A stretch of DNA of 63,477 nucleotides, the filler included, from Aduncisulcus paluster (taxonomy: Eukaryota), in the NCBI GenBank assembly GCA_024181965.1. It is 7 parts of 7 records of this genome, joined end to end, with 100 filler letters (N's around TTAATTAATTAA, not from the genome) between each part and the next. Parts side by side here need not be neighbours in the genome. Positions count along the whole stretch, not along the records: positions 30,589 to 41,870 come from BQXS01009948.1; 6 more parts are not named here. One strand, written 5' to 3'. Of this stretch, positions 12,893-52,634 are shown one piece after another. The stretch's first letter is position 1; every line of letters starts with the position of its first letter. The position numbers were made by a program, and so were the translations under genes. A model generated the notes under the pieces. That model was not told the DNA's origin and did not search any database. It saw only the letters and a list, made by a program, of their open reading frames with translations.

Positions 12893-13937
12893 ATGTCAAC
12901 AGAAATTTCTCAATATGAATTGATACTTGGAGCTAGGAATCTTCCAAGCAACTTATTTGTTAAGTAAGAGTGACCCTTTTGCTGTAGTCGAAATGGTGTG
13001 TACTGGGGCTGCCCCGGTTCGAATTATGAATACTAATGTGATAATGAATAATGAAAATCCAGATTGGAGAGAAATGGCATTGGTAACATATCGACTTGAA
13101 TCTGCTGATATGGTGAAGATTTCTATCTATGATGCCGATTCTAAAGATTTGACGAAATTATCAAAACACGATTTCATTGGATATGTTCAGTTTCAACTCG
13201 CTTCTTTGATTGTTTCCAGAGAAGGTGTTTTGGAACTCCCTATTTTGGGCAAAGATGGTAAGAAACTTCCCCTCGTCCACAAAAAGCCACCAATTTTTAT
13301 CGTAAGTGGTGAAATTGCAAAAGCCTCGAATGCATTTGCCGATATGGAATTTAAAGCTCTTCGTGTTGACAAGAAAGATGTTTTTGGTAAAAGCGATCCT
13401 TATTTGTTGTTTTACAAGTCAAAAGAGACAAGAACCACAGTTCCCGATGCCATTGAAGCCAGTTCTCCAAGTTGTAGTACTTCTTGGTACCTTTCCCACA
13501 AGACTGAAGTCATCAGGAAGACTCTTGATCCATGCTGGAAACCTTTCACTGTGAACCTCCAATCACTTTGCAACGGTGATCTTGGCAGGCCTATCAAGAT
13601 TGAATGTTGGGATTGGGATCGAGTTTCATCCGATGATTTTATTGGGAGTGTTATCACTGATGTTAACGAACTCCATAAACTGTCACAATCAAAAGACGGT
13701 CTTCCTCTCTTATCTGAGCACAAACGCCAGAAGTTGCTCAAAAAGAAGAAGTCTTATATTAACTCGGGAATGCTCTATCCCATGAAGATGCACATATACA
13801 AGAAACCGCAGTTTATTGACTATGTTAATTCTGGAACATGTCAGATCTCGTTATCCGTGGCTGTCGATTTTACTGGATCTAATGGATACCCTTCAAATCC
13901 CTCGTCTCTCCATTACATTGGTGCTGGTGTATCTGCC
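12893..13937 (+). CDS. Copine (two C2 domains plus start of vWA), 3' partial, +1 frameshift near 12945
   Basis: SKSDPF and DVFGKSDPY C2 motifs, WDWD, and the copine vWA motif VAVDFTGSNG. The N-terminus MSTEISQYELILGARNLP (ATG 12893) lies in a different frame. Confidence 0.92.
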
Positions 13938-18201: not shown

Positions 18202-19290
18202 TTATTCCTGTCCTTGCACAAGCATCGAACCACTACTCACCAATTTTTTAAAGATAGCATTGACAATGAAATATCCTAAAGCAACCCAAATAACAAGTTC
18301 TTGAATGGCTAAACGAACAATTTGGATTCCTTTTCTTTCACACATTGCAACGTTTGGTGGAACAGAAACGAAAAAAGATATCTCGACATTGTAATCTCCA
18401 TCATCGGTATTTTCACAGTTGACAATATGCTCGGATCCCTTGGAAAGCAACACAGAGAAATCCTCTGTTTCTGGCGTTGATACTCCTCCGCCGATTGCCA
18501 ATCCACCACCACCTGATAATCTGTACACGCTTCCGGGAAGATTCGAATCCTCAGCATGTTGAGAAACAACACCTTGGGTCAGGATACGCATTGGATCAAC
18601 ATCGGCAAAGGAAGATGCGCTGTTTGGAAGGACACTTCTTGTGGAATGTTCGATTGATGTTGATAATTTGATGACATCCTGTTGGATGATTCTAGCATCA
18701 TAAAAGGACAGGCCAACAGATATTGGAGTTATTGAGCTTCCAGTGGAGAGAATAATGGTATCTTCAAGATTGAGGAAGAAAGGAGAGATGGAATCAGGTG
18801 ATGAATAATCATGAGGTGAGCTGAAAGGTCTTGTATCTGGATATACGGGAGAACCAGCCTCAATAGAAATGCCAGTAATCACTTCTGCTCGATAAATTTT
18901 CAGAGGGGTCGTATCAGAACTATAACGAATTTTAAGAGCAATGCGTCCAGCATCATCTGGGGGATATAAATCAACTGATATCCCTTCAATGTCATCAATT
19001 GAGAAATATTGATCATCTAAAGTGGAAGATGAAAGAATTCCAGGATAGGAAGTAGAATAATAAACCGTGTCTTCACTGCCATAGAGAAAAACAAGATAGT
19101 TACCTGAAAATGATGAATAAGAATTATATAATACAGATAATTGAGTATTCCACCCACCTCCTAACATCCGAAAGAGTAAGAATCCAAGTAATATCGCCAA
19201 TGGTATCTTCAATACTCGAAATACATTAATAAAACTGCACGATGGCGCATAATATTTCTTCACAACCGTTTTTTCATAAACTTGAGGCAT
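18202..19290 (-). CDS. TMEM231: TMEM231-like ciliary transition-zone (MKS module) membrane protein
   Basis: Co-linear similarity by eye to recalled TMEM231: VYEKTVVKKYYAPSCS~LFSHPVERSYRAGLCS, TM1 then GGGW~HGFW, RIIQQ~RLQQK, SVLPNSASSFADVDP~SVINGTSPFAYDYDL, C-terminal TM2. Confidence 0.75.
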   Translation of the reverse strand: MPQVYEKTVVKKYYAPSCSFINVFRVLKIPLAILLGFLLFRMLGGGWNTQLSVLYNSYSSFSGNYLVFLYGSEDTVYYSTSYPGILSSSTLDDQYFSIDDIEGISVDLYPPDDAGRIALKIRYSSDTTPLKIYRAEVITGISIEAGSPVYPDTRPFSSPHDYSSPDSISPFFLNLEDTIILSTGSSITPISVGLSFYDARIIQQDVIKLSTSIEHSTRSVLPNSASSFADVDPMRILTQGVVSQHAEDSNLPGSVYRLSGGGGLAIGGGVSTPETEDFSVLLSKGSEHIVNCENTDDGDYNVEISFFVSVPPNVAMCERKGIQIVRLAIQELVIWVALGYFIVNAIFKKLVSSGSMLVQGQE

Positions 19291-19496: not shown

Positions 19497-21740
19497 ATGC
19501 CAGGCGTTCCTAATCAAGCTCCTCCGCAATCTAGTAGACCTATGACAGCTGTCAGAGCCGCTGGATATTCTTCTGCTGGCAGGCCTGGAACTGGAGCAAG
19601 AAATTACTCTAGTAAGCACTCGAAATTACCAAAAAAAGAGATTATTACGCGTGAACAACGGATCCGTACGTTGGAAGCACGTGTACATGAACATATTAAT
19701 GCATGTTGCGATGCTATGGAGAAGAAAGACTATAAAACTGCGATTAGTGAAGCTCAAATTGCTATTAGATCCGATAAAAAACTTATAAAAGAGGATGGCG
19801 CCTCGAAAGAATCAAATGAATCTGATTTAACGTTTTCTACACAACTTTGTCTCGCCCAGTCTCAAGAAGGAGCCGGTGATTATGAAGAAGCAATTAGAAC
19901 CTATACATCCATGCTTAAGCATCATAAAGAAATCCAAGAAGCAGAGATACGTTTACATATTGGAAATTTATATTTTAAATTGGAGAAATACGAAACTAGT
20001 ATCAAAATGTACCGAATGGGAATTGATATGATTCCTCCCACTCACAACAGACTTCGTATGTTATTTGGCCGTAATATTGGACAGGCCTTTATGAGTCTTG
20101 GCCAGTGGAGTGATGCTGTATCTACCCTTGATTCTTCTTCTTTCGATAGCTTAGAAGCCGATGCTGAAAGAAGCCAGTCCCAAACTGGAGATGAGGAGGA
20201 TGAGAGCCCCGAGGTTGATTTCCAGTCTCTCTACAATTTACTTATTTGCTATTATGCCACAGGCGACCAAACCATGATGTTTGAAGTGTTTTCTCGTCTC
20301 ATCACAGCTGATCAGAAATTCACAACTGATTCCGCTGGCGATTCTCTTGCATTAAATCTGGCCAAACAAGCTCGTGAAAGGCGTAGACTTTTATTGCAAG
20401 CTGCTCGTCTCATTGCTCCTGTGTGTGCTGAAAACGAAGCTACCGGGTTTGATGCCGTCTCCACTCTGCTCCGTCAAAGTGGTCTTGGAAAACTTGCCTC
20501 ATCTCTTGAGCTTGCCAAAGCGTCTGCTTTCATGCACACTCGTGATTTTACGTCTGCCGAGTCTGTTCTGAAAACGATGGAGCGTCGTGGAGGTGGTTCT
20601 AGCCTTGACATGATTACTGGTGGGACCGATTCCTCCCAATATGGTACTGGCACATCTGGCGGCGACAAAGCCCAGTCCTCGCTCGAAGGTATTTACACCA
20701 ACCTCAGTTTCCTCTCTCTTGCCAAAGGTGATGTGGAAAGTGCCGAAAAACATGCTGAGAGTGCCCTTGGGTGTGATCGTTATGCTCCTCAAGCCCTTGT
20801 TAATGACGGATGTGTTAAGATGAGGAAAGGAGAGATTGAAGCTGCTCGAGATATCTTCAGTGAAGCTGTGAGACTCTCCTCTGACTCTGTCGAAGCCATG
20901 TATAACCTTTCTTTGTGCCATCGGATGCTTGGTCACTACACCAGTGCTCTTCGTACTTTGCAGAGACTTAACGTTGCTGTTCCTGATCTTCCCTCGGTCG
21001 TGTATCTTCTTGGGGACACTTCGTTTTTAGCCGGGCAGAAGGAAGAAGCCGTCCGTTATCTCGAACAATGTGTCAGTCTTGCTCCTTTCGATAGCACTGT
21101 TCACTGTAGGCTTGGAGAGATCCACAGCAAGATGGGCGATATTCCAGCTGCCGTTAACTGCATGTGTGAGGCTGAACGTTGTGATCCATCCAATGCGACA
21201 GTGCTAGAGTGGTTATCGTCACACTATATATCTCAAGAGGCGTATGAACAAGCCTTGCCATTACTGCGTCGTCTCAGTCTCCTTGCTTCGACGTCCACAA
21301 TGTCCATCGGAGTTGACGGAAACATTGAGGGCACGTCAGATCTGTGTGAGAAGTGTAAGTGGCTCTTGCTTGCCGCCTCGTGTGAAAGGAGGCTGGGATT
21401 GGTTGATGAGGCCACTTCAACGTACGACGCCATTGTAAGTGAGTTTCCCGCTTGCCGTGAAGCTCTCAGGCATTTAGTGAGACTTTGTAACAATAATGGT
21501 GATAGCGTCAAGGCTGCTCGCTATCAGAAAGAGCTCGATCAAGCTGTTTCTCTTGCCGCCAAACAGGAGGCACGGGTCTTGATGGAAAAGAAAGAAGAAC
21601 CTGTAAAAATTGATTTTAAGGCATCTGAAGTGGAAGAAGACTCAAGATTTTCCGGAAGACCAACACCAAAACTGCCAAGTAGGGATGATGATATCTTTGA
21701 TGATGATGATATGCTTGGAGATGATTTTTTACCCGAATAA
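19497..21740 (+). CDS. IFT88: Intraflagellar transport protein 88 (TPR protein)
   Basis: N-terminal signature RPMTAVRAAGYSS; IKMYRMGID; DRYAPQALVNDG; VEAMYNL; tandem TPRs; acidic C-terminus ending LGDDFLPE. Confidence 0.93.
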   Translation: MPGVPNQAPPQSSRPMTAVRAAGYSSAGRPGTGARNYSSKHSKLPKKEIITREQRIRTLEARVHEHINACCDAMEKKDYKTAISEAQIAIRSDKKLIKEDGASKESNESDLTFSTQLCLAQSQEGAGDYEEAIRTYTSMLKHHKEIQEAEIRLHIGNLYFKLEKYETSIKMYRMGIDMIPPTHNRLRMLFGRNIGQAFMSLGQWSDAVSTLDSSSFDSLEADAERSQSQTGDEEDESPEVDFQSLYNLLICYYATGDQTMMFEVFSRLITADQKFTTDSAGDSLALNLAKQARERRRLLLQAARLIAPVCAENEATGFDAVSTLLRQSGLGKLASSLELAKASAFMHTRDFTSAESVLKTMERRGGGSSLDMITGGTDSSQYGTGTSGGDKAQSSLEGIYTNLSFLSLAKGDVESAEKHAESALGCDRYAPQALVNDGCVKMRKGEIEAARDIFSEAVRLSSDSVEAMYNLSLCHRMLGHYTSALRTLQRLNVAVPDLPSVVYLLGDTSFLAGQKEEAVRYLEQCVSLAPFDSTVHCRLGEIHSKMGDIPAAVNCMCEAERCDPSNATVLEWLSSHYISQEAYEQALPLLRRLSLLASTSTMSIGVDGNIEGTSDLCEKCKWLLLAASCERRLGLVDEATSTYDAIVSEFPACREALRHLVRLCNNNGDSVKAARYQKELDQAVSLAAKQEARVLMEKKEEPVKIDFKASEVEEDSRFSGRPTPKLPSRDDDIFDDDDMLGDDFLPE

Positions 21741-28591: not shown

Positions 28592-29698
28592 TTATTTCCA
28601 TGGAAGTAGAGATAATCGTTCAGCTGCAATGGTTTCATCGGGCATAGTAAATACAAGGGAGTCGATCCAGAAACATCGACTATTCTTATTACACCACGTT
28701 CCTTTCCCTTCAATCTCACACAATACAACATTATCCAAATCAATAGGAAGGAAATGCCATTCGACTCCATGTTTAGGTTCTGTGAATTCATACTTCTTGA
28801 ATGTCTTCTTACCATCACAATCAGCAAAAGTGAAGAGAAGAGAGGGTGAACTATATTGTTTATCCACACAGATATAAGCACCTTTCATTGGACTAGGTGA
28901 TGGGAAAGGAATGGAAAGATGGGATAATTGGACATAATCTCCCCCTTTTAACATTTTTTGTGCTTCTGAACTCTGAACATACCACTTAGATTCCTTACTA
29001 AGCAAATCATTCTTGCACTTAACAATTGAGAATGAAGGATCCACAAGATGTGAATCATCACGTGCAATGGGAATAGAATCTCTACCACCTGCCTTAATAA
29101 ACTCTGGTTTAACAACTGGAGCTTCAGACCATAGTTTCTCTTTGGCTTCACGAGATGCGATTTCTTCAGGAGTTTCTTTTCTACTAATGAAAACGAGAGA
29201 ATGGATTCTAAAACACTCTTCATATCTTCCTTTCCCTGTAATCTCACACAGAACAACATCAGAGAGATCAACAGGGAGGAAATACCAACGCCAACCATCA
29301 AATTCAGGAAACTCGTATTTCTTGGATGTTTTCTCACCCTTTGAAGATGTGAGAGTGAAAATAAGATGTGATGTAGGTAAATAAACACCAAATAGACAGA
29401 TGTAAGCCCCTTTCATTGGGGAAGATGAAAAGAAAGGAATAGAGATATGGGTATATTGTCCAGCATTACCCCCTCCTTTCATCATCTCTCGTGCGCTAGA
29501 ACTCTGATCGTACCTATAACTATCTTCCTCAGTTCCATTAATTGCTTTGATAGTTGGAAACTTTGCACTCTTAATATTGGGGGCATCTCCAGGAATTGGA
29601 CAGCAACCCTCACTTCCTTTATGAATAAACACGGGTTCCACAGTTTGAATAACAGCGTCTGTGGATGAACTCATTTGTACACTTTCAGTTGAACCCAT
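28592..29698 (-). CDS. Lineage-specific protein with two tandem ~170-aa beta-rich repeats, possibly N-myristoylated
   Basis: Repeated unit SIPF..SPMKGAYIC...KKYEF...W.FLP.DL..VVLCEI.GKG; starts MGSTES. Confidence 0.85.
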   Translation of the reverse strand: MGSTESVQMSSSTDAVIQTVEPVFIHKGSEGCCPIPGDAPNIKSAKFPTIKAINGTEEDSYRYDQSSSAREMMKGGGNAGQYTHISIPFFSSSPMKGAYICLFGVYLPTSHLIFTLTSSKGEKTSKKYEFPEFDGWRWYFLPVDLSDVVLCEITGKGRYEECFRIHSLVFISRKETPEEIASREAKEKLWSEAPVVKPEFIKAGGRDSIPIARDDSHLVDPSFSIVKCKNDLLSKESKWYVQSSEAQKMLKGGDYVQLSHLSIPFPSPSPMKGAYICVDKQYSSPSLLFTFADCDGKKTFKKYEFTEPKHGVEWHFLPIDLDNVVLCEIEGKGTWCNKNSRCFWIDSLVFTMPDETIAAERLSLLPWK

Positions 29699-30426: not shown

Positions 30427-30590
30427 TGCCAGCTCCTGATTATACGATACATTTAATCTGAGATTTGTGATCTGTGATCCTTGTCTTTNNNNNNNNNNNN
30501 NNNNNNNNNNNNNNNNNNNNNNNNNNNNNNNNTTAATTAATTAANNNNNNNNNNNNNNNNNNNNNNNNNNNNNNNNNNNNNNNNNNNNTG

Positions 30591-32063
30591 GATAAAATAT
30601 CTTCAGAGCGAGGACGACACCGAAGCCGTGGCCGAACAACATCGTCATCTCAATTCGGTGTGGAAGAGGCAGAAGAATCAGATAGTTTCGGTGCCAGTTT
30701 TACAACTGCCATGGATATAACTGGGCAAGACCAAAGTGGAGAGGAAGATGAGAATGATTCGTATGAACCGTCAGAATATTCGTTTTCAGCCGTTGATTAT
30801 GTCGGTGCCGATAGAGCTCCTGGTAGTCCTGAGGATGATGTAAAGATCATTGGAGGAAGGTATCGAAGGAGATCAAAGAGGAGAAGCACTGGTGAACATG
30901 GGATAGGTGACGGGATGGGACTTGAAGACGGAGAGGAAGATGAAGATGAAGGTAGTGGCTCTGATTCGTCGTCTACAGCCACGAGTGACTTCCACAGACA
31001 GAGATATGCTCCCGGAGTGCCAAAACGTTCTTCTACGTCGGGATCTTCTTCTTCCTCTTCCTCTAGGCGGTCAGGAAGATATCCTCAAGGTCATGTAATG
31101 TGTCACAATGGAGACAATACAGATCTTTTGCCCATTGCCTCAAAAAGTGATTTCAGGCAAATTCGCAAAAGCCATGGTTTCCTATATGATATCTTTGGTA
31201 ATGCCGCTGTGGCCTCAAAGAATGGAGGAATGAGTCACCAGCCCTTTGGAGTCGATATAAATGCCGAATATATGAAACACGTATGGGTTCCCCGTGAAAT
31301 GTTATCCAAATTAGGGCCCTCGTGGGGTGGTGGTGATCTTGAGAAATATGCTCCTCCACCGGGGAAACGGAGATCCAAGAGGACTCGTATGGGGCCTGTA
31401 TTTAGTAATTTGGGTGAGGAAATCATCTACCGTGGCGGTGTGATCTGTGGTGTCATCAAAGCTGTCCCCGTTGAGCATGTAAGACGGAAGAGAAGGAGGA
31501 AACCTACTAGAAACACTGACATGTTCCAGGATCCACCTGAAGGTGTCATAAAGCAACCTATGGGTCCATTCACTCGCACGATAACACACAGGCATTCTGG
31601 GCAACGAGAGAAGGTCGTTCTCGGTGTTTCTGGAAGAGACATTAACTTTACAGATATCCCTCAACTTCGGCATGCAAGGTGTCCCTTTAAATCGCACATA
31701 TACATCGCTACGTTATTAGACGATTCAAAGATCCACAAAGGATTCCTTCGGTTTGATCCCAGAGCTAGAAGTCGTCCGATGCGAGTTGAGGATTACCAAC
31801 AGATATGGGACATTCGCCAGGGGGAGTTGACGATTACGATTGATGGAAGAAGTATAAGAAACACTGGAGCTAATTCTTTCTTTATTTTAAAGCATGGAAT
31901 GCAGGTGCAAATTTCAAACCCTTCTGACAAAGTCTCTGTGGCAAGCTTTGAATTCACAAAGAGAGCTCCAATTCGAGGGTCATCAAGACACTCCATGGAT
32001 CAATCATCAGTATCAGCAGAGAGATTTACAACATCAGGAAGCCCCACCGGAACATACCGGTAA
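30591..32063 (+). CDS. CENPC: CENP-C/Mif2-like inner kinetochore protein, 5' partial
   Basis: CENP-C-motif-like RRSKRTRMGPVFSNLGEEIIY (31368-31430; cf. Mif2 RRSKRTRVAPLQYWRNEKIVY). C-terminal cupin-like segment IRQGELTITID...FFILKHGMQVQISN, preceded by a disordered region. Confidence 0.72.
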   Translation, partial: DKISSERGRHRSRGRTTSSSQFGVEEAEESDSFGASFTTAMDITGQDQSGEEDENDSYEPSEYSFSAVDYVGADRAPGSPEDDVKIIGGRYRRRSKRRSTGEHGIGDGMGLEDGEEDEDEGSGSDSSSTATSDFHRQRYAPGVPKRSSTSGSSSSSSSRRSGRYPQGHVMCHNGDNTDLLPIASKSDFRQIRKSHGFLYDIFGNAAVASKNGGMSHQPFGVDINAEYMKHVWVPREMLSKLGPSWGGGDLEKYAPPPGKRRSKRTRMGPVFSNLGEEIIYRGGVICGVIKAVPVEHVRRKRRRKPTRNTDMFQDPPEGVIKQPMGPFTRTITHRHSGQREKVVLGVSGRDINFTDIPQLRHARCPFKSHIYIATLLDDSKIHKGFLRFDPRARSRPMRVEDYQQIWDIRQGELTITIDGRSIRNTGANSFFILKHGMQVQISNPSDKVSVASFEFTKRAPIRGSSRHSMDQSSVSAERFTTSGSPTGTYR

Positions 32064-32270
32064 ATTACCGGTAATAATTTATAATAATTCATACTATTTA
32101 TAGATTCTATAATATAGAACACAACAATATATACACCTAACCATTCTCATTTAAATTTTCAAAATATCAGAATCGATCTCTGATAATCTGATCTATTATT
32201 AGGTCGCAATTTTTAATAACATTCAGAATATATGATAGATATTATATTACGAATATCTAATAAATTAATA

Positions 32271-32271
<1 letters not shown>

Positions 32272-32302
<31 letters not shown>
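32272..32302. repeat. (AT)n microsatellite
   Basis: Direct reading. Confidence 0.95.
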
Positions 32303-32306
<4 letters not shown>

Positions 32307-32502
32307 AAATATGATTTATAATTTTTCTCTTTCTCATTCTTCTTTGACATGGAGGGAATAATCACCCAAGAATGATTCACTTTGTAGATAATTTCGCCAT
32401 GATCATTCGAGAGGAAATAGGATGGAGTAATCCAGTTCTGTTACTTATTATTTGGAATATATAATTATTAATTTATCAGTAATGTTGGGGGGAAATACAA
32501 GC

Positions 32503-32926
32503 TTAGAACTGTTCATCAGGTCCGATTTCTTTTTTCTTTTTCATTTCCTTTCTCACTTCTTTTAAATCAACAATAACGACACATCCATCCATATGTTTTC
32601 CCATCACTACACATTCATGGCAATACAATGCCTTGTGGATGCCTTTAGCTCCACAAATAAGACATTTTCCCTTTGTTTCACTATTGGAGGCACAATAGTC
32701 GCATATTTTAACTTCTTCCTCTAAAAAGAAGTGTGAATCGCACAAAGGACACCTTCCATCACATTTATCACACAATAATCCAATTGTATCGCCAACCTGA
32801 CGACGACAAAATACCAAATCGGGATCTATGAAAGAATGAGTTAATAAGAGAAATAATTATGGATCAAGTCAAATATACAAACCCATTAATGTTAAAAAGA
32901 AAATACATACGATACCTGGCTGCCAT
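32503..32926 (-). CDS. PHF5A: PHF5A/Rds3 (SF3b subunit); exons 32926-32911 and 32825-32503
   Basis: Splicing the 85-nt intron 32910-32826 (GTATGT...TATTAAC...TAG) gives MAARYHPDLVFCRRQ..GLLCDKCDGRCPLCDS, the PHF5A N-terminus and Cys pattern. Confidence 0.95.
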
Positions 32927-33206
32927 ATTGCAAGAAAAACGAGGCTTCAAGCCCTCCTCTCTCAATAATTGATAAAATATTTTCAAATATAATAATATTA
33001 GTAAATATAACCATTATATGGTAAGAAAAAGAAAATATATATCAAATATTACAATAATTGGGCTAACTAAATGACTTTTTTGATAGGCACCGAAGGGGAG
33101 AATTATTTTCATAAATAAAATAGAAAAACGCTTATAATAAACATTAGATTTGAGTTTACTGGTATCATTGTCCTATCTTCCTCTTAGTTAAGCAAATAAT
33201 AAGTAA

Positions 33207-35549
33207 TCACAATTTACTGCCAACAAAATATAAATCATGTTTCCCGGTCCTTAATCTGTCAATATCTTTAACAGTTGATTCCATAGCTTTCTTCAACGCA
33301 TCAAGTTTTTTCTCCTCAGCTTCAAGTTGTTGGGTGAACAATTCTTTAAAATTTTCTGCTTTTCCTCTGAGCTCTGACACATCTTTTTCAAGGGATGCAT
33401 ACTTATTACTTTCCGAACAAAAGAGAGTCAAATCAATCTGTTGAGATTTTTGATATTCCAATTTCCTCCTTTTTTCTTCGATAGACTTTTCCTCTTGCCA
33501 CAATTCACGATATCTCTTCACAACTTTTCCGATGCGTCCGATTTTTTCCTTGATTAAACTCTTATCATCTCTAAACATAGAATTTACAACAGATAAGGAG
33601 CAAGAAGAAGAAGAGCAAGAAGAAGAAGAAGAAGAGGAAGAGCAAGATGAAGATGAAGAAGATTTTTGACGATATATCTTGTCTAACTTTTCTCCAAGAA
33701 GAGTCAAGTCCCCATCACAGGTGGGAATGTCGGGTTCGTCTTCACGGTCGTGTTGTTCATCAGCAGCATGGACATAATATTGAGCAAAATCTTCGATATA
33801 TTTTCTGATATCACGGACATATTCATGAAAAAGACGGAAATATTTCTTTTCGATTCTTCGTTTGATTCTGTTAAAGCTCTCAACCGCCATTGAACAACAA
33901 GAACAACAAGAACAATGGGAGTCACCAGAGTTAGAAGTTGAAATGAAGACATTGGGGAGACCAAGAATCAAAGAGGCTATTTTTAGATCCCTTGAGAAAT
34001 TAGGAGATGTTGAAGGACTGCCTCGCCCCGGAATATCTATCTCACCGAGAATATCCTCACCGTGTGCCAAAATACAACGAGTTCTTCTCCCCTTAGTCAT
34101 AGCAATATTAAGCCCAGCCGTAGGATCCATCACAACCAATGAACATCCCTTCTCCAGCACAATACTATCATCAAGAGAAGCAGTTTCCTCGAGAATCGAT
34201 ACAAATGCTGAATTGTCAATCTCTGCAGAACGAAGGACACCAGCTTTGATACAGGAGTAGAGATATTCGGTCTCCTTGGGCTTGATATGATGATGTTTTA
34301 AAGTAAAGAAATCCCGACATATCTGAGAAGGGGGTTTGAACGGACAAGCTAGAGTCTGAGAAGGATCTCCATGAGAATCGTCACGTACTAGATCCTCATA
34401 ATACATGGAAGATGGAGCTAACTTGCGACGGATAGTGGGAAGGGCTAAAGCAATCATAGGATTACTACTTTGAGGGTAGTACTCGGTTTCTTTCTTTTCC
34501 TCACGTTGGAATATATCATCGGTTTGTTTAACAACAATGGTATCTTCAGTCTCTTTCAGAACTTTGGCAAGCAACTGCTCGGGTGTTTTGATGGGGATTT
34601 GAGGTGGATTAATTCCATATCCGTTATGTAAAAGTCCAGTTTTAATGAAATTTAGAGGAAGAGAAGCACGGAGCTTCTCATTAGAGCTAAAAATAGAACA
34701 TGATACAACTCGAGGATAAACGATGAAAATATTCCTTGAAACTGAAGTAAAAGAGGCAATTGGACGTAAATATTTATGGGGAAACAATGTTTCATTCACA
34801 ATTTTCTTCAAATTGTTTTTAATTTGCCGGAAAATGGGAGAACGTTTACGAACATAAATTCCAAACAGATACTCGCTTTCATAGTACTCTTGCTCCGTGA
34901 TTGGGTGTTTTTTCGGTTTCATTCGGAGAATTTCGTGGATTTCGCCACCATCTGTTCTTGTAAACTTCGATATTGGGTCAATGAGCATGGTGATGCTGTT
35001 CAACGCCTGCGACACCGGAAGACTGTACTTTTGAAAGCGTGGGATTGCCTGAAATGCCGGAATTGCATCGACTAACCAAGCTTCTATGCATTCATTGAGA
35101 GAGGATTGCACTTTAGTGGGAGATTCTTCATCCTCATCGGCATAGATACAAGAATCGAAATAAGTATCGAAAGTTCTATAGGCAGAGAATGTACGGAGTA
35201 AATTTGATTGAATAATATCGTATTCATCAACAGTCTCTTGCATATCTTGATACCTTGCAAGAATTCCTTGAATCAGTTCGATGAGATCCAAGTATTCTCG
35301 CTTCCAATCATTGGATTCACAGTGCATGCTGATATGATCAACAGAACACATGGAGATAAATCTTGATTGCAAGGCTGGTAGCATGGAATACATCATATCT
35401 ATTTCAGGTTGGTATTCATCAATTATCTGGATAACATTTTCAATATCTGACTCTAAATCATCAATTTTTCTATCTATATCAGCTTTTAATTGGGAATATT
35501 TTGTAATTAAAGATGAGCAATGAAATGGGTCCTCAGAGGGTAAAGACAT
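33207..35549 (-). CDS. Hypothetical coiled-coil protein
   Basis: 780-aa ORF with heptad-rich termini. Confidence 0.75.
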   Translation of the reverse strand: MSLPSEDPFHCSSLITKYSQLKADIDRKIDDLESDIENVIQIIDEYQPEIDMMYSMLPALQSRFISMCSVDHISMHCESNDWKREYLDLIELIQGILARYQDMQETVDEYDIIQSNLLRTFSAYRTFDTYFDSCIYADEDEESPTKVQSSLNECIEAWLVDAIPAFQAIPRFQKYSLPVSQALNSITMLIDPISKFTRTDGGEIHEILRMKPKKHPITEQEYYESEYLFGIYVRKRSPIFRQIKNNLKKIVNETLFPHKYLRPIASFTSVSRNIFIVYPRVVSCSIFSSNEKLRASLPLNFIKTGLLHNGYGINPPQIPIKTPEQLLAKVLKETEDTIVVKQTDDIFQREEKKETEYYPQSSNPMIALALPTIRRKLAPSSMYYEDLVRDDSHGDPSQTLACPFKPPSQICRDFFTLKHHHIKPKETEYLYSCIKAGVLRSAEIDNSAFVSILEETASLDDSIVLEKGCSLVVMDPTAGLNIAMTKGRRTRCILAHGEDILGEIDIPGRGSPSTSPNFSRDLKIASLILGLPNVFISTSNSGDSHCSCCSCCSMAVESFNRIKRRIEKKYFRLFHEYVRDIRKYIEDFAQYYVHAADEQHDREDEPDIPTCDGDLTLLGEKLDKIYRQKSSSSSSCSSSSSSSSCSSSSCSLSVVNSMFRDDKSLIKEKIGRIGKVVKRYRELWQEEKSIEEKRRKLEYQKSQQIDLTLFCSESNKYASLEKDVSELRGKAENFKELFTQQLEAEEKKLDALKKAMESTVKDIDRLRTGKHDLYFVGSKL

Positions 35550-36128
35550 TAATAATCAATATTCTTGGGATAAAATATATAATGTGAAATTTTTTAATTG
35601 TTTTTATAAAAATATCCTTGAATAATACTCTCAAGGAGTGACAAAAGCAGGTGTGGAGGTGAGGCAAATTCGATACCGCAATAATATTGCTTTCAAGAGC
35701 AGCCTTAGAAATTGTATTTTATGCAAAAATCCAAAAGGATATTTATTTTCAATTGTTTATAAGAAGAAGGTCAAGAGACAGGATAAAACCCACAACTCCG
35801 CCAAATATTACAGCTCGAAAGTCATAATATAGGAGGTGAAAAGTAAATGCTTGTTGGATCAAACTTCCTAAAAGGAAAAAGTCTAGAATGGATCAAAACC
35901 CCCTAGAAAATAAAATTATTCTCAAGGCTGAAAAAAAGAAGTAGAAATGTGTTAAACAATTTATATTAATCGAATTATATCTATAAACTTGGATCTAAAT
36001 CGATAACGATAACAAATTTCATTGAAAGTAAGCGAATCACACAAATTCAATTTCGTGAGATTCGCATTTGAATCACATGAATCGATGATTTTGAGGTGGA
36101 TACCATATATCAAAGAATATATTGAATA

Positions 36129-36659
36129 ATGAGTGGAGCAAAACGAGTTGTTGCGGCATTACAAGAGGCCTCTAATGTTATTAAAGTTGCTACTGATGTT
36201 TTTTCTTCTACTGGTGTAATGACAGCCTGTGCTCATGAATGTGCCACATGTCCACAATTTGCACAGTGTAAAGGAATTGGATTACAGAATGAAGAGTTAT
36301 TTACCAAGATATTTTCAAAAGATACATCTAAATCGCAATTTGGTGCTGATGGGCACCAAGATGAAAGGTTTAAATTTGATGATAAAACGATATTAGATAG
36401 TGAAAGTTTTATTTCTGGATTTGGAGCAGCTGCAGGGGAAGCTATTGATGAAGAAAGAGAAAGGGAGGAAACTCATGACGCTGATGATAAAATTGTTACA
36501 TCGCCGTTATTTTCTGATTTACCAGGTGGAGATTCATCGGCTTTAAAGATGTTTGATATGTCTCAGAAATCTAAATCACTTCATTCATATTCATCATCAA
36601 CAGACTCAAAAGAAGAAGGTACCATCCTGAAACTCAAAACTTTCAATGACTTCTTTTGA
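36129..36659 (+). CDS. Small hypothetical protein with Cx3Cx2CPx4C motif
   Basis: 176-aa ORF containing CAHECATCPQFAQC. Confidence 0.65.
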   Translation: MSGAKRVVAALQEASNVIKVATDVFSSTGVMTACAHECATCPQFAQCKGIGLQNEELFTKIFSKDTSKSQFGADGHQDERFKFDDKTILDSESFISGFGAAAGEAIDEEREREETHDADDKIVTSPLFSDLPGGDSSALKMFDMSQKSKSLHSYSSSTDSKEEGTILKLKTFNDFF

Positions 36660-37036
36660 AATTTATGACTAAATTTATCTCAATTCATCATTTTTGATCA
36701 TCCACAAATCATAAACTACTAAATCAATCATAAAATCGCACCCAGTTCGTTATAACACTGAATTATATTATCTAATATATATCTTTTTTTAATCGAAAAT
36801 CAAATTTGTCGGAATAATATGGTACTTATATTTCCTTCCCTATGTTTTGAGATCGAATCCATTTCTCCTCTTCTAATGGGCTGGTATCAGTGATTACAGC
36901 TGAAAATTAATAATTTCATTAAAACTAATAAAATATCTAATTGTTTTTATCACTTAATTTTCTTCAATCAAATGAGTTTTTGAAACTCAATCAATGATTT
37001 TCATTTTCTCCGGAATATTCAAACCTATTTTGTTCA

Positions 37037-38602
37037 ATGGTTGTTGAAGTTGAGGTAGAACAAATTGAACTTCCTGTTCCAGAGACCTGTTATCAGAGAT
37101 ATAAGGCTAGAAAGTTGGCTAAGGCGAAAATCGCTGCTGATAGGCATCTAATGCTTGCTTCAGATCATATTTTTAAAACTTTAATGGCTTTATCCATTCC
37201 TTCTATTATTTCAATGGGTCTTAATGCCGTTTATAATGTTGTGGATTCCATTTTTCTTGGGAATTCGAGCGCCGAGGATCTTGCAGCTGCAAGTTTGTTT
37301 ATGGTTATTGAATTCGGTGTATTCACGTCATTGAATGTGTCATTGGGTGCTGGAGCTAGTGCTGTTATTTCTCCGGCTCTTGGAAAAGGTGATTTTTTAA
37401 CTGCTAACAAAGCCCTCACATACTTTTTTACTCTCCTTATTATTGTTAATGCTGCCATTCCTGCTATTTTCATTCCTTATCTTGACCCCCTGCTTGACTT
37501 TTTAGGAGCTACTTCTGTTACTAAGGCTCGGGCCAAACAGTATGCTCTCATCATGAGTGCTTTCCCTATTGGATATGGATTAACCGCGTCAATGGGTCCC
37601 TTGCTTCGTGTTGAGAATAAGGCTTCTCTAAGTATGTGGCGACAAGTCATTTCATCTGCCTTGAATGTCATTTTTGATCCCATTCTGATCTTTGGTTTTG
37701 ACCTTGGAACTCAAGGAGCTGCCATCTCAACTGTCGCCTCGCAGCTTATTGTTGGTGTGTATATGCTCTGGTTCTATTTATTCCCCGAGAAGAGTGGTGC
37801 TACTGTCAAACTCGCTTGGAATGAAGCATATGGCAAAGGGAACATGGATTGGCGAATGATTGGAAAGATGTCTGTTCTGGGCCTTGGCAACCTCTTCTCT
37901 GGGATGGGAAGGAGGATTGCTGGACTCTTATTCAATAGGACCTTCAAGACGATGCTGGATGGAAGTCTGGTGGAGGTCTATCAGGCCATTATGGGTGCCA
38001 TGACTCAACTATCGTCTCTGATTGGAATGCCATCAGCAGGGATTGCGTTAGGGTTCATTCCACTTGTCGGCTATAATATCGGCAGAAACCGGTACGACCG
38101 TGTTCAAAAGGCTTTAGTATACTCATTCCTGTCTATGTTGGTCATTGGAGGATCGCTTGTCATTCTTGTTGAGATCCTTGCAAGACCTATCAGCCGGGCA
38201 TTTGGCTCTGATGGTGATTTCCTCGATCTTGCCCCCAAATATCTTCGTATTGGTCTGTGTGGAGTGTGGTTGTCTGCAGGCACATCTCTTCTCATGGGAT
38301 ATTTTCAAGTACGGCATAACATCATTGTCTCGATGATAATGGGTCTCTTGCAGCCCGTTCTGTCCATTATCTATGCCTCAATCCTTCCATACACATCTTT
38401 GGGTGTTGCAGGTGCCTTCTGGACTCCGACAGCTGCCTTTGTGACATCATTTATCATTGCTCTACCGATTATGATCGTTGTTTTGAGACAGATTGACAAG
38501 AAGAAGCATATTCCTTCTTTTGTCATCGATGGTGAGTCTGAGTCTGGTGAGAATTCAATGAAGTCTCCAGAAGCAGTCGAAATGCGGGAAGCCAGAGTAT
38601 AG
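37037..38602 (+). CDS. MATE-family efflux transporter (bacterial MepA-like)
   Basis: About 12 hydrophobic segments; YNVVDSIFLG, LNVIFDPILIFGFDLGTQGAAISTVASQ, PLVGYNIG motifs. Confidence 0.93.
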   Translation: MVVEVEVEQIELPVPETCYQRYKARKLAKAKIAADRHLMLASDHIFKTLMALSIPSIISMGLNAVYNVVDSIFLGNSSAEDLAAASLFMVIEFGVFTSLNVSLGAGASAVISPALGKGDFLTANKALTYFFTLLIIVNAAIPAIFIPYLDPLLDFLGATSVTKARAKQYALIMSAFPIGYGLTASMGPLLRVENKASLSMWRQVISSALNVIFDPILIFGFDLGTQGAAISTVASQLIVGVYMLWFYLFPEKSGATVKLAWNEAYGKGNMDWRMIGKMSVLGLGNLFSGMGRRIAGLLFNRTFKTMLDGSLVEVYQAIMGAMTQLSSLIGMPSAGIALGFIPLVGYNIGRNRYDRVQKALVYSFLSMLVIGGSLVILVEILARPISRAFGSDGDFLDLAPKYLRIGLCGVWLSAGTSLLMGYFQVRHNIIVSMIMGLLQPVLSIIYASILPYTSLGVAGAFWTPTAAFVTSFIIALPIMIVVLRQIDKKKHIPSFVIDGESESGENSMKSPEAVEMREARV

Positions 38603-38653
38603 AATTACACCATAATTACACCATAATTATATCATAATTACACCATAATTACA
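38603..38653. repeat. 11-bp tandem repeat (AATTACACCAT), about 4.5 copies, immediately after the MATE stop
   Basis: aattacaccataattacaccataattatatcataattacaccataattaca. Confidence 0.9.
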
Positions 38654-39708
38654 TCGTGATATTTTTCACAAGAGTCTAGAATAGATTTCAGAAGCAAAAA
38701 TCGTAATATATATTTGATATATTTCCAAGTCCATGTCGATGTCATTCCTTATTTTCAATCTATCTTTGCGATTAATATTAGATATTAATATATATATATT
38801 TACAAGTATTTATCATTTTTTTTTTTTTTTTTTTAACTTTTATCTTTATTTGACCAAAATCATTGTTTGTCTATTTATAGATACTATTTGTCTATTTTTA
38901 GAACCGTACGAATCTCTGGGTTCAGAAGAATATTTATATTGATCTTTTTTGATCTCTTCTACTTCACTTACATCAGTTATTAGCTCGTTGTTATAAAATC
39001 AAGATTTAGTTATCATTTATATTTAATTATTATCTATTTAAATGAATAATTATTATTGTTTTATAAAATCAAAAACTTTTTTATATTCTTAGTTGTGTCC
39101 TCAAAATTTAATTCTTTTTTACATCATCATCATGTGAATCGATGATCGATTGCTCTCGAATTCAAGTGTTTATCTCTTTTGAAATGAATTAATTAGAATT
39201 AATTATTAATTATTGCCAAATTGGCACTGCCACAGTGCCTCCATTGATATATGTTGATTATGGCTTCGAACAGATGAATAAATAGTTCTGATCAGAATAC
39301 TGATATCTATTTTAGGATACATATTCATAGAAATGTGCTTATTAACTTCACATCCTTGATATTCCACTATCTTGAGATGATAGAATAAATCTCAACTTCC
39401 AATGGAAATAATTCCAACGACGATAGCAGAAGAACGTTTGTTTCTATTAATATTGGGAGGGCTCTCCTTCAAAAACAAAAGAGTGAATATAGAATGTAGC
39501 CAGTATTTCAATCTACCGTTGAAATCGAAATAATTTGCCGGTTCATCCCCATTTCTGTATATGGGTTTTCAGCATAATTACATAAAAAATAAAATCAATT
39601 TTTTTATTATTTCTTATCAATATAATTTAAAAATCCATGATTATTTGTTTTTTTGCAGAGACATGATCCAGTTGAAATATTTTCCCTTTTTCTTCGACAA
39701 TAGAAATT

Positions 39709-40320
39709 ATGGATGGGTTAGGTCATGATCCATTCGCAAGTAGAATTAAAGAAGCTATCATATTTGACGAGATATTTGAATTTCGACAAATTTTCCCCCC
39801 CTCAAAATATCTTCCACTATCTCAATCTTCTCCTCGCCCCCGTGATTCTCGAAAAGATGCAATCCATTCTGAAAGCATTAAATCTCAGGTGCACCCGTCT
39901 AAACCTAACCCACGTAAAGGATCGAAATCTATTATTCACTTTTTGACAGAAAATATTGTCTTTTTTCTCGTTATGTGGAGGCTGATACCATCTGGGGTCC
40001 GTAGAGAGGTGAATGCCAAAGATTATTTTCAATCCGTTGATTCATTAGTTTGTCCTTTACCCACAGAGAACCATATTACTGCAAGAAAACTCCAAAAATG
40101 TCGATATATTCACAATAAGAAGGGCTGTCCTAAGAAAATGGGCAAAATGGTTGTATCCGTTTGTGATGTCATCGAAGAAGTCTGCAGGGAGTCACATGTG
40201 GTCTCCTTTGAAGCCACTCCGCATTTTGCAGAAGCCTTTGTGGAAAAAGTTATCCCCAAACTCAAACCCCCCATATTTCCCCAGATGCCTTCTCTTCAGA
40301 CCATTTCCGGAAGATTATAA
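39709..40320 (+). CDS. Hypothetical protein
   Basis: 203-aa ORF, no recognised motif; boundaries uncertain. Confidence 0.4.
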   Translation: MDGLGHDPFASRIKEAIIFDEIFEFRQIFPPSKYLPLSQSSPRPRDSRKDAIHSESIKSQVHPSKPNPRKGSKSIIHFLTENIVFFLVMWRLIPSGVRREVNAKDYFQSVDSLVCPLPTENHITARKLQKCRYIHNKKGCPKKMGKMVVSVCDVIEEVCRESHVVSFEATPHFAEAFVEKVIPKLKPPIFPQMPSLQTISGRL

Positions 40321-41091
40321 CTATTGTCAAACAATGGATTGGCCTTTATCCAGAATCAAGGAAATTGATTAAGAGTGTGAAACAGCAAAGAGATATTGCA
40401 ACACATGAGGGATCTACGAAGATTAAAGCTCGCAAAGGACATCGAGATAGCCAATTGTAGATTCTTTTTGTAATTAATTAATTAACTATACGATTTTTAT
40501 TTTTGACTTAAGCACAAAATTGCTGAAGAAAAGCATGCTGGAACACTCAGCTATTCTCTAGCTTTGCTTTGCAACACTTTAAAGATTTTTATTTCTATCT
40601 TTCAGTTGTTTCCGAAAAAAAAAAGAGCTTTGGGTAACTTTGTTTCATTTGTTTTCTTCTTCCATGAGTTGAAGAAACAAGTGTCAAAGTCCAAACTCCA
40701 CCTAATTCGAAATACAATCTTTAGAAAGATATATACTACACCCATTTCAATTTTTTTTATAAAATTAAATTGATAATTTTACATCTTCTGCTTGTGACGT
40801 GTCAGTGACACGATTTTTTCGAATCACCTGCAAGAGAAGATCGACTCGATCATCGAGCATCAAAATCGAAAAAAAAATATAATAAAACCACTAAACAAAA
40901 CATTGACAAACCCCAATATTGGGAGATATAGAACAATATGCGACTTACAATGCATTTACCACCCATAAATGTACAGCATTTATCATAAATGTTGTCTGAT
41001 TATGAAGGGTTGAACAGTAACATGGTGCTTTCGAAGGTTCAACTCTACATCCATGAATAGGGATATATATTGAGATGATAGAATAAACAAA

Positions 41092-41870
41092 TCACGCCTG
41101 ACTATCAAAGTCAAGTCCACTCGATGGTAGTCTTAATCCTCTATAATCCCCAAAGTCATCCACACGGCCCTTATCTCCCTCATATCTCTTCATTTGTCTC
41201 TTTATGATGCTATCTATCGTTGGGCATTCCCACCCTTCTCCAAGCCTTGGAAGTAACTGTGCGATAGATTCAACTTTCATCCGTGCATCATTCACGCTGA
41301 GTCTATCGCCAGCATCGTATTCAATCAACCCATCATACACTTCTTTGAGACAACTGTAGATCTCATCTCCATGAGGCATCTCTTTCAGCTTTCTGAATAG
41401 GGGACACCATTCTATCTTTGGGAAATCACGATTATGCATCATCTCAAGCATTTTCTGGATCACTCCGGCATTATCCACGGTGCCATCTGGATGGAAAAAC
41501 TCATCGAATGCTCGATTACTCAGGAATGGGACATGGCCACTAAATGCTGCATACATCGACATTCCAAGAGCATAAGCATCGCTGTCCTTCGAATGATTAC
41601 CAAATAAAGCTTCAGGGGAGTTATACGCATAAGTTCCGCAGATAACTTTCCGATCTTCTTTTTGTGTCGTCTTGCTACTTTTTGAAGAAGAAACAACTGA
41701 GCCAGAGGATATAACGCTCGAAACAGAGAACGATAACGAGTCCTTTGAAGAGGAAATGGAGTCTGAGATTTGAGCAAGCCCAAGATCTCCAAGGATAAGT
41801 CCACATCTACCGGTGTCAGGATCTACTCTTACAAGGTAATTGTCAGGTTTAATATCTCGATGAATGAACG
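41092..41870 (-). CDS. Ser/Thr protein kinase, C-terminal part, 5' partial
   Basis: Manual translation from the contig edge: FIHRDIKPDNYL...GDLGLA...CGTYAYNSPE...SDAYALG, in frame with ORF 41092..41562. Confidence 0.92.
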
Positions 41871-51559: not shown

Positions 51560-52634
51560 GCGTTGGTGGACACAGGATCATCTTTGAATCTGATTAGCCA
51601 AGATTTACTTTATAAGTTGACACCCACACAGACGCTGGGCATTAGAAGAAGCAAGTGCATGATTGAGCTTGCTGACGGGTCAAGAATTGGACGAGGAGCA
51701 AGATGTTGTTATAGACAGTGAGGATGATGATGAAGACATTGTAGAATTTGTGGAAAGCCAGGACATGTTGAAAAGCGAGGATGTGGAGATTCAGGTAATG
51801 ATGCATCAGGCATTTAAGGAGTATCATGAAACGGTAAAGTCGTTGGAACCGGCCAGGGTGCATCCGGTGGTCCTCGAGTTGATCGGGGGAGCTAAGGAAG
51901 TTGCACAACCCCCAAGGAAGGTCCCGTATCATTATCAAGAGTTAGAAAGAGAGATGATTACTGACTTGCTGAAGAAAGGATTCAGGAAGAGTTCGAGTTC
52001 ATTTGCAAGCCCGATACTTCTGGTACCAAAGAAAAATGGTCAAATGCATATGTGCATCGATTATAGAGAGTTGAATAAGCTCTTGGTACATAATCGTCAT
52101 CCAATTCCGCGACCGGAAGATCTGTTCCAAATTCTTCAAGGAAAGAGTTGGTTTGCATCATTTGATATAAAGAATGGATATTATGCTTGTACACTTGCTA
52201 GAGAAAGCCAAGAAATAACTGCGTTCTGCACACCATTCGGTTTATATGAATGGTTAAGACTCCCGTTTGGTTTGAAAATTGCACCGGCTTATTTTCAAAG
52301 AATTATGACGGATATGTTAGGAGACTTACGAAGTCAGGGAGTGGTCGTGTATTTAGATGATATTTTAATTTGTGCCGAAACGAAGGAAAAGTTGGTGGAG
52401 TTAGTGAAAGAAGTTCTGAGAAGACTACAAGAAAAGAACTCGATCATTAATGTGGGGAAGTCGTTTGTAGGAAAGCAAAAGATTAGATTTTTGGGATTCG
52501 AGTTCTCTGAAGAGGGAAAAAGGATTGTAGAGGACGAGTTCAAGCGGTGATGGAAATGGCTAGACCCACTGACAAAAAGGGTGTCAGGAGGTTCCTTGGT
52601 ATTTGTAATTATGTGCGGGATTTTGTGCCACGTA
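51560..52634 (+). mobile_element. Ty3/gypsy protease-RT fragment
   Basis: ALVDTGS, MCIDYRELN, LPFGLKIAP, YLDD. Confidence 0.92.

Follow-up and report, generated by a model that had tools for sequence, protein, structure and literature searches.

A divergent, unannotated CENP-C-like gene of the fornicate Aduncisulcus paluster, probably a CENP-C/Mif2 orthologue, with serine and asparagine in place of the aromatic pair of the motif

CENP-C, described as CENP-C, Mif2 or Cnp3 in animals and fungi, is an inner-kinetochore scaffold that binds centromeric nucleosomes and links centromeric chromatin to the kinetochore. The canonical motif has an aromatic pair at positions +8/+9 from its anchor arginine (Y725/W726 in rat, W530/W531 in human); this pair is the element for which CENP-A reading has been demonstrated, gripping CenH3 by its hydrophobic C-terminal tail. 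Centromere targeting of plant CENP-C is reported to require DNA-binding regions that flank the motif, and the CenpC cupin lies about 100 residues downstream of it (PMC4359364). For dragonflies (Odonata), Drinnenberg et al. 2014 linked damage of the CenpC motif to the loss of CenH3, and a dragonfly CenpC in which no motif can be recognised is still treated as a putative homologue (PMC4359364).

Among fornicates, CenpC was scored absent in Carpediemonas membranifera and in diplomonads, the Mis12 complex was found in none of the sampled species, and Ndc80 was absent in Carpediemonas (PMC8516963). Supplementary Data 4 of the same survey lists CenpC in Kipferlia bialata (g703.t1) and in Trichomonas vaginalis (TVAG_018410). 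In H2A, the acidic patch (E56, E61, E64, D90, E91 and E92) is changed both in Giardia (E64R/E91K) and in Spironucleus. Like Aduncisulcus paluster, K. bialata is a fornicate with a free-living habit, and it has a metamonad CenpC (PMC8516963, PMC9933649), so a CENP-C in a Carpediemonas-like organism would not be unprecedented. A. paluster itself stood outside the published fornicate kinetochore survey (PMC8516963), and a literature search returned no paper pairing the species with kinetochores. Here we describe a stretch of its genome that is probably the C-terminal part of an unannotated CENP-C/Mif2 orthologue, together with the evidence for and against this assignment.

The window, i.e. the whole stretch of DNA analysed (63,477 nt), carries the 3′ part of the CENP-C-like gene at 30591..32063 on the plus strand, with 490 codons followed by a TAA stop (32061-32063). 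An earlier note had placed a CENP-C-like gene at this position and had taken the host lineage to be that of Carpediemonas. The open frame is confirmed, but 30591 is a contig edge and the gene is 5′-truncated: the position marks the first in-frame codon (third base) past an artificial contig junction (N44-TTAATTAATTAA-N44, 30489..30588), not the gene start, and the frame is open from the contig edge onwards. The N44-linker-N44 pattern occurs in 6 copies across the window; the copy at 30489..30588 removes the 5′ part of the gene, and the contig that carries the remainder extends over 30589-41870 (11,282 nt). Regarding the host, positions 30591..31034 (+) overlap residues 399-546 of ADUPG1_009754 (tblastn, 100% identity over 148 aa), which NCBI lists as a hypothetical protein, partial, of Aduncisulcus paluster (546 aa). 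The organism is accordingly A. paluster rather than Carpediemonas. ADUPG1_009754 is encoded on another contig and supplies the missing N-terminal 398 residues, from which a complete protein of about 888 aa follows; the 490-aa piece in the window is its C-terminal 55%.

The draft assembly is highly fragmented (25,863 contigs, N50 4.6 kb, BUSCO 40.4%; PMC9933649), and the division of the gene between two of its contigs, together with the loss of key motif residues described below, would fit a decaying or mis-assembled gene, i.e. a pseudogene or a chimera created at the contig junction. We regard this as very improbable. Both contigs share an overlap of 444 nt that is 100% identical, and a single contig of 2,947 nt from run X1 spans the junction, reaches 1,234 nt upstream of 30591 and reproduces all 1,675 nt of 30591-32265 (0 differences). 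All 490 codons are open, with no frameshift across the motif, and decay would not have left 12 of the 14 motif positions untouched.

The motif itself is a 21-residue stretch, RRSKRTRMGPVFSNLGEEIIY, at 31368..31430 (+), corresponding to residues 260-280 of the 490. It was scored against a 14-position working consensus, which we take to represent the CENP-C motif and of which only five positions are backed by the literature consulted; 12 of the 14 constrained positions were matched, and both mismatches fall on the aromatic pair. When the 888-aa protein was shuffled 20,000 times with its composition preserved, a score of 12 was never attained (maximum 9), and the second-highest score over the window's 50,871 six-frame positions was 7. 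The match is far beyond chance. The predicted arginine anchor, R264-T-R266-M267 (31380..31391, +), has the spacing +0, +2 and +3 of rat R717, R719 and L720, and shares with CENP-C/Mif2/Cnp3 of animals and fungi the anchor arginine, a second arginine (+2) and the hydrophobic residue that follows it (+3). Beyond the arginines, a proline (+5), a Gly-Glu pair (+11/+12) and a tyrosine (+16) stand in register, all without a gap, and the claim that the arginine anchor and P...GE..Y are kept is borne out.

At +8/+9, where the canonical motif has its aromatic pair, the A. paluster protein differs from CENP-C/Mif2/Cnp3 in having Ser272-Asn273 (AGT AAT, 31404..31409, +), as had been proposed when the YW pair was first aligned to SN. 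The replacement is not a single-base error, because the contig of run X1 is identical over the entire stretch. The two residues are flanked by hydrophobic ones, V270, F271 and L274 (+6, +7 and +10). A gapped alignment that brings F271 onto the first aromatic position was rejected; the ungapped register is preferred because both sides match in it, whereas the gapped one requires two compensating indels.

As in the dragonfly CenpC of PMC4359364, a CenpC-type cupin appears to persist alongside a damaged CenH3-reading motif; in the dragonflies the whole motif is decayed, whereas A. paluster keeps 12 of 14 positions and has exchanged no more than the aromatic pair. The change in A. paluster looks selective rather than a general decay of the motif. 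How CenH3 would then be read is a matter of hypothesis, including the "rewired" reading suggested by the earlier note. If the protein is a CENP-C, V270, F271 and L274, together with a co-evolved CenH3 tail, may tentatively be proposed to preserve CenH3 recognition. It is less likely that the motif binds nucleosomes via the acidic patch only, with centromere specificity coming from elsewhere, and a little more doubtful still that CenH3 itself has been lost or strongly altered and that the motif is starting to decay.

The sequence upstream of the motif contains few hydrophobic residues and much Ser, Gly, Asp and Glu. Its first part (30591..31115, +) is of low complexity and presumably disordered, with acidic and Ser-rich blocks: 35-residue blocks contain 4-8 hydrophobic residues, net charge falls to as low as -10, and no Pfam family is matched at E<=10. 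A long, disordered and unalignable remainder is also described for CENP-C/Mif2/Cnp3. The pentapeptide RRSKR occurs twice in the protein; its first copy (30867..30881, +), which stands without the remaining motif and agrees with 6 of the 14 consensus positions, might act as another arginine anchor, in nuclear localisation or as a kinase site. Starting 17 residues past the motif, the basic patch RRKRRRKPTR (31482..31511, +) is a candidate DNA-binding or nuclear-import stretch. The protein ends in a short tail rich in Ser, Thr and Arg (31938..32060, +).

A nucleosome-targeting motif of the CENP-C type that is flanked by unspecific DNA-binding regions is likewise described for KNL2/M18BP1. The CENPC-k motif is reported there, with DNA-binding regions beside it, for KNL2 of plants and of non-mammalian vertebrates, and a CenH3-loading factor of this kind would account for that part of the A. 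paluster protein. We consider such a factor highly improbable here. The KNL2 descriptions consulted give a SANTA domain and a CENPC-k motif and make no mention of a cupin, whereas the A. paluster protein ends in a cupin-like domain and neither ADUPG1_009754 (546 aa) nor the whole 490-aa piece matched SANTA or any other Pfam family at E<=10. The language-model neighbours of the protein, given below, are CENP-C_C proteins. To our knowledge, KNL2 proteins are without a C-terminal cupin.

The cupin-like C-terminal domain was placed at residues 373-449 (31707..31937, +) on the basis of sub-threshold Pfam matches and language-model neighbours. From the end of the motif (residue 280) to this domain there are 92 residues, in agreement with the spacing of about 100 residues known from CENP-C/Mif2/Cnp3. 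The order put forward by the earlier note (a long disordered region, the motif and a C-terminal cupin-like segment, the architecture of CENP-C/Mif2) is therefore present. The entire 490-aa piece matched no Pfam family at E<=10. When three nested pieces were compared with Pfam, only three families were matched, all of them cupins and all below their curated thresholds: CENP-C_C (PF11699; E 0.034-0.24), Cupin_2 (PF07883; E 0.07-0.15) and EutQ (PF06249; E 0.029-0.25). The same three pieces gave no match in NCBIfam. The proposed relation to PF11699 holds as far as coverage is concerned, since profile positions 4-79 of 85 were matched, but not in score, which was 12.1-14.9 bits against a gathering cutoff of 29.

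Regarding specificity, none of 22 control pieces of 120 aa, of which five other ORFs supplied 20 and the front part of the same protein 2, matched any cupin family; 9 of the 22 matched unrelated Pfam families at E 0.018-0.27, and because these values are similar, the Pfam E-values alone mean little. PF11699 had been predicted beforehand, however, so that an E-value of 0.034 over 24,736 models corresponds to a p of about 1e-6 for this family alone. That the domain is nearer to CENP-C than to metabolic cupins is suggested by the language-model ranking, whereas the bit scores of CENP-C_C, Cupin_2 and EutQ lie within 2 bits of each other, and Pfam cannot separate them. In the language-model search the 250-aa piece had three PF11699 clusters at the top (0.93, 0.93 and 0.91, 180-199 of 256 features, recognition 2572), scores to be read against the 4-10 in 100 shuffled proteins that reach 0.9, a rate measured on proteins rather than on parts of them. 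The cupin alone (residues 100-222 of the 250-aa piece) again had three PF11699 clusters at the top (0.94, 0.93 and 0.92, 177-184 features), with clusters containing only Cupin_2 ranked lower (0.91 with 157 features and 0.86 with 101-114 features).

Small bacterial cupins (Cupin_2, EutQ and KdgF, 5fq0) thus resemble the domain in giving similar sub-threshold scores over the core strands. They differ in that shorter parts of their profiles were matched (EutQ 93-137 of 152), in their rank below the CENP-C_C clusters in the language-model search, and in lacking the eukaryotic disordered context and the nucleosome-anchor motif found in the A. paluster protein. The 77-residue cupin match contains 2 His residues only and, as judged by visual inspection, no His-x-His pair; it may be non-enzymatic, metal-dependent cupin enzymes (Cupin_2 and relatives) having a His-rich metal site in their two cupin motifs. 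AlphaFold2, run without an alignment, gave no confident cupin model (pLDDT 33.6 for 250 aa and 38.0 for 125 aa), and the ubiquitin-like folds returned by Foldseek for the 125-aa model (E of at least 0.15, TM about 0.2) are meaningless at such pLDDT.

The CENP-C-like gene of A. paluster is fast-evolving and divergent. Compared with 5.8 billion clustered proteins, the 490-aa piece retrieved only itself or ADUPG1_009754; with the same clustered proteins, residues 250-470 yielded no homologue at E<=10 among 330 candidates, and the N-terminal 400 aa of ADUPG1_009754 none among 8,000 candidates. A phmmer search of 1.84 billion representatives with the last 250 aa found no A. paluster relative at E 0.001, and of 139 pattern matches in metagenome contigs 0 were confirmed. 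Five phmmer queries (490, 63, 120, 26 and 250 aa) against the PDB sequences retrieved a CENP-C chain in no case; the matches were to 1vkn, the WD40 protein U5-40K and KdgF at E 0.6-1.8, the best cupin being KdgF (5fq0) at E 1.2. The A. paluster protein differs from CENP-C/Mif2/Cnp3 in that its cupin is below the Pfam cutoff and that no database protein is detectably similar.

With no homologues found to demonstrate conservation, every family match sub-threshold and Cupin_2, EutQ and KdgF scoring like CENP-C_C, the gene could encode a nuclear protein peculiar to this lineage, bearing a small non-enzymatic cupin and a basic stretch that resembles an NLS, whose likeness to the CENP-C motif would be convergent or accidental and which would have no role at the kinetochore. 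The repeated RRSKR, which resembles a nuclear import signal, and the absence of the residues that define CENP-A reading would agree with such a protein. We nevertheless judge it improbable: the proline (+5), the Gly-Glu pair (+11/+12) and the tyrosine (+16) are in register, where the shuffles reached 9 at most against 12 observed; both the distance from motif to cupin and the C-terminal placement of the latter are as in CENP-C; and CENP-C_C proteins are the language-model neighbours of the long piece as well as of the cupin alone. Orthology to CENP-C/Mif2 is the probable reading.

For a CENP-C, we infer from these sequence features the fold, dimerisation, nucleosome binding and localisation of the protein. 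The C-terminal cupin domain would form a homodimer, in which each CENP-C copy would present the motif to one nucleosome face. R264 and R266 would insert into the H2A-H2B acidic patch, and the basic patch could contact DNA unspecifically as well. Recruitment of other kinetochore proteins may fall to the long, disordered N-terminal part. A more speculative and rather doubtful proposal is that the protein is a natural separation-of-function variant, which retains the acidic-patch anchor, the cupin and most of the motif (12 of 14 positions) but has specifically given up the aromatic clamp for the CenH3 tail. If this were true, centromere recognition would no longer proceed via contact between CENP-C and the CenH3 tail, and the A. 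paluster protein could be an intermediate toward the complete loss of CenpC reported in Carpediemonas and diplomonads.

Fornicates are a clade in which canonical kinetochore parts vanish stepwise. In the A. paluster motif the changes are confined to the CenH3-reading residues, which makes a question testable: are anchor and cupin enough to hold CENP-C at the centromere, or did the CenH3 tail evolve along with the motif? Should the neighbouring hydrophobic residues compensate, the case would be an ordinary one, a known protein that evolves fast. An unannotated CENP-C of A. paluster would be the second point among fornicates from which kinetochore losses could be dated.

The window contains six junctions of the form N44-TTAATTAATTAA-N44 and three gaps of 20 N (N runs span 1553-57551); it is a concatenation of separate contigs, so adjacency of genes across a junction is not established. 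One artificial junction (30489-30588) cuts the CENP-C-like gene, which lies on the contig at 30589-41870 (11,282 nt). The reading frame flagged by the earlier note is real: on the plus strand it is open for 490 codons from 30591, where the first codon in frame begins on the third base past the junction, to a TAA at 32061-32063, and the peptide RRSKRTRMGPVFSNLGEEIIY is present at 31368-31430. The first in-frame ATG, at 30711, is not the gene start. A perfect 17-nt odd palindrome with one central base (ACCGGTAAATTACCGGT, 32056-32072) spans the stop codon.

Two database protein entries were returned for this gene. P0001 (478 aa) is the window's own product, and P0002, named at NCBI 'hypothetical protein ADUPG1_009754, partial [Aduncisulcus paluster]', covers the N-terminal part; its residues 399-546 are 100% identical to the translation of 30591-31034, so the full protein comprises about 888 residues, the first 398 of which are encoded on another contig. 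The join of the two parts was confirmed by a contig of 2,947 nt from the public sequencing run X1, which covers 30591-32265 with 0 differences and extends 1,234 nt upstream. A broken or chimeric gene is thus highly improbable, since the frame is open, the overlap with P0002 is identical and the X1 contig bridges the junction; genes split between contigs are expected from the fragmentation of the draft genome (25,863 contigs, N50 of 4.6 kb, BUSCO 40.4%; PMC9933649). The naming of P0002 also corrects the host, which had been taken for a Carpediemonas and is the free-living fornicate A. paluster.

In the rat CENP-C motif, as described, binding to the H2A-H2B acidic patch is through R717 and R719, the L720 contact is stable, and the hydrophobic tail of CENP-A is held by Y725 together with W726; for the human central region the same roles are described for R521/R522 and W530/W531/V532/V533. 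The motif is given as 24 residues, with an Arg-rich first half and a second half containing three aromatic residues (PMC549713). With R264 of the 490-aa piece taken as the anchor, R266 falls at +2 and M267 at +3, which bears out the proposal that the arginine anchor is kept. Positions +8 and +9 are Ser272 and Asn273, so that Asn stands at the canonical Trp position, and the claimed replacement of the aromatic pair by Ser-Asn likewise holds. The codons, AGT AAT, differ from those for Tyr and Trp by at least two and by three base changes, respectively, and are the same in the X1 contig. The fuller working consensus used to score the motif is R-R-S-x-R-x-[RK]-x-x-P-[LIVM]-x-[YFW]-W-x-[GN]-E-[RKE]-[IVLF]-x-Y. 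The protein matches 12 of its 14 constrained positions and misses only the two of the aromatic pair. When the 888-aa protein was shuffled 20,000 times, 12 positions were never reached (maximum 9); the second-best stretch within the protein matches 6, and none of the 50,870 remaining six-frame positions in the window matches more than 7. Because the register is anchored by matches on both sides, an indel placing F271 on an aromatic position would require a second, compensating one, and this shifted alignment was rejected. Hydrophobic residues flank the gap left by the pair (V270 at +6, F271 at +7 and L274 at +10), and in the human central region, as described, V532 occupies +10 as L274 does here.

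The pentapeptide RRSKR occurs at 30867-30881 and again, 167 residues further on, at 31368-31382. The remaining motif is missing from the first copy (6 of 14 positions), which could, judging from sequence, be a second arginine anchor (cf. the vertebrate central region), a nuclear import signal or a kinase site. Two of the three Trp residues of the protein (31284-31286 and 31323-31325) lie in a hydrophobic stretch 15-28 residues upstream of the motif.

For the proposed C-terminal cupin, a Pfam search with the whole 490-aa piece was empty up to E 10. Three nested pieces (250, 120 and 80 aa) all matched an identical set of three families, each sub-threshold: CENP-C_C (PF11699; E 0.24, 0.051 and 0.034; 12.1-14.9 bits, cutoff 29; profile 4-79 of 85), Cupin_2 (PF07883; E 0.081, 0.15 and 0.07; 12.2-13.3 bits, cutoff 27.2; profile 3-62 of 70) and EutQ (PF06249; E 0.25, 0.06 and 0.029; 11.6-14.6 bits, cutoff 21; profile 93-137 of 152). 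Of 22 control pieces of 120 aa searched with identical settings (two from the front of the protein, 20 from five further ORFs in the window), nine gave unrelated families at E 0.018-0.27, so E-values of this size are common noise; none gave a cupin family. The signal counts because all three matches belong to one fold class, the CENP-C_C profile is covered nearly in full and PF11699 had been named before the search. In the language-model search, the top three clusters were PF11699 for both the 250-aa piece (0.93, 0.93 and 0.91; 180-199 of 256 features shared; recognition 2572) and the cupin alone (0.94, 0.93 and 0.92; 177-184 shared features), with Cupin_2-only clusters lower for the latter (0.91 with 157 features, 0.86 with 101-114), on a scale where 4-10 of 100 shuffled proteins reach 0.9 (rates measured on whole proteins, not parts). 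Among the cupin searches it separated CENP-C_C from the others most clearly, which is good but not conclusive model-based support. AlphaFold2 without an alignment gave pLDDT values of 33.6 and 38.0, too low for a predicted cupin fold, and Foldseek with the latter model returned noise only.

Protein searches found no relatives of the 490-aa piece beyond the protein itself and P0002. Residues 250-470 (E<=10, 330 candidates scored) recovered the protein alone, the N-terminal 400 residues of P0002 (E<=10, 8,000 candidates scored) recovered no relatives, and phmmer with the C-terminal 250 residues, run on 1.84 billion representatives, gave one protein at E<=0.001, itself. A DNA-level scan of metagenome contigs gave 139 pattern matches, 0 confirmed. 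Among PDB sequences (phmmer) a CENP-C chain was absent in all five queries; the best cupin was the small cupin KdgF (E 1.2), and WD40 matches were equally weak. That the protein is instead a nuclear cupin unrelated to CENP-C and carrying an NLS-like stretch is unlikely.

The Pfam cupin match starts 92 residues past the motif and stops 41 residues short of the stop codon, and a basic patch, RRKRRRKPTR (31482-31511), lies between motif and cupin; unspecific DNA-binding regions beside the motif are described as needed in plant CENP-C. Outside the motif and cupin region no Pfam family was matched, and the remaining protein is rich in Ser (14.6%), Gly (8.2%) and Asp (7.4%), with three Trp per 888 residues. 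A KNL2-like protein is very improbable, as a SANTA domain was not found. The protein is likely the CENP-C orthologue of A. paluster, a reading that is probable on sub-threshold and model-based evidence and a consensus that draws in part on published contact positions. By analogy with the family, the cupin would form a dimer, two arginine anchors would dock on the pair of acidic patches that one nucleosome offers, the basic patch would rest on DNA and the disordered N-terminus would serve as a recruitment platform.

Elsewhere in the window, a 747-aa TPR protein (19497-21737, plus strand; many TPR matches including ANAPC3, PF12895, E 5e-10) could be an arc-lamp subunit of the APC/C or some other TPR protein; its contig piece is not the one that carries the CENP-C-like gene. 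A Ty3/gypsy chromovirus-type polyprotein (58354-62412, plus strand) has protease, RT, RNase H, integrase and chromodomain, and a separate reverse-transcriptase fragment lies at 51765-52547 (plus strand). A C2-domain protein (12993-13937, plus strand; E 4e-23), a MatE transporter (37037-38599, plus strand; E 3e-34) and a weak TMEM231-like match (18202-19290, minus strand; E 7e-5, just under the cutoff) were also found. A 368-aa ORF (28592-29698, minus strand) consists of two similar halves, both with ...MKGAYIC...KKYEF...VVLCEI.GKG..., and matched no Pfam family at E<=0.001; at that threshold, 17 large ORFs were searched in all and 10 of them were without a family.

If the protein is CENP-C, there is close to an even chance that V270, F271 and L274 compensate for the missing aromatic pair together with a co-evolved CenH3 tail. 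Loss of CenH3 specificity with nucleosome binding retained is a doubtful alternative, and early decay following loss or change of CenH3 is improbable; plain decay is argued against by the selective pattern, with 12 of 14 positions kept. The closest comparable case of motif damage is that of dragonfly CenpC, described as having a retained cupin and a motif that 'has decayed'; its authors tie this to CenH3 loss (PMC4359364). The 'rewired centromere reader' of the earlier note is a hypothesis, reasonable and open to testing, rather than a result.

The survey of Salas-Leiva et al. covered 18 genomes, A. paluster not among them; its table gives CenpC as present in K. bialata (g703.t1) and T. vaginalis (TVAG_018410), leaves it unlisted for both Carpediemonas species, three Giardia, Spironucleus, Trepomonas and Monocercomonoides, and shows zero Mis12-complex members across fornicates (PMC8516963). 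H2A acidic-patch residues are described as charge-reversed in Giardia and Spironucleus, both without CenpC (PMC10606924). Among the papers searched, none mentioned Aduncisulcus together with the kinetochore. Because CenpC is already listed for the fornicate K. bialata, CENP-C in a Carpediemonas-like organism is a new record, not a new kind of finding.
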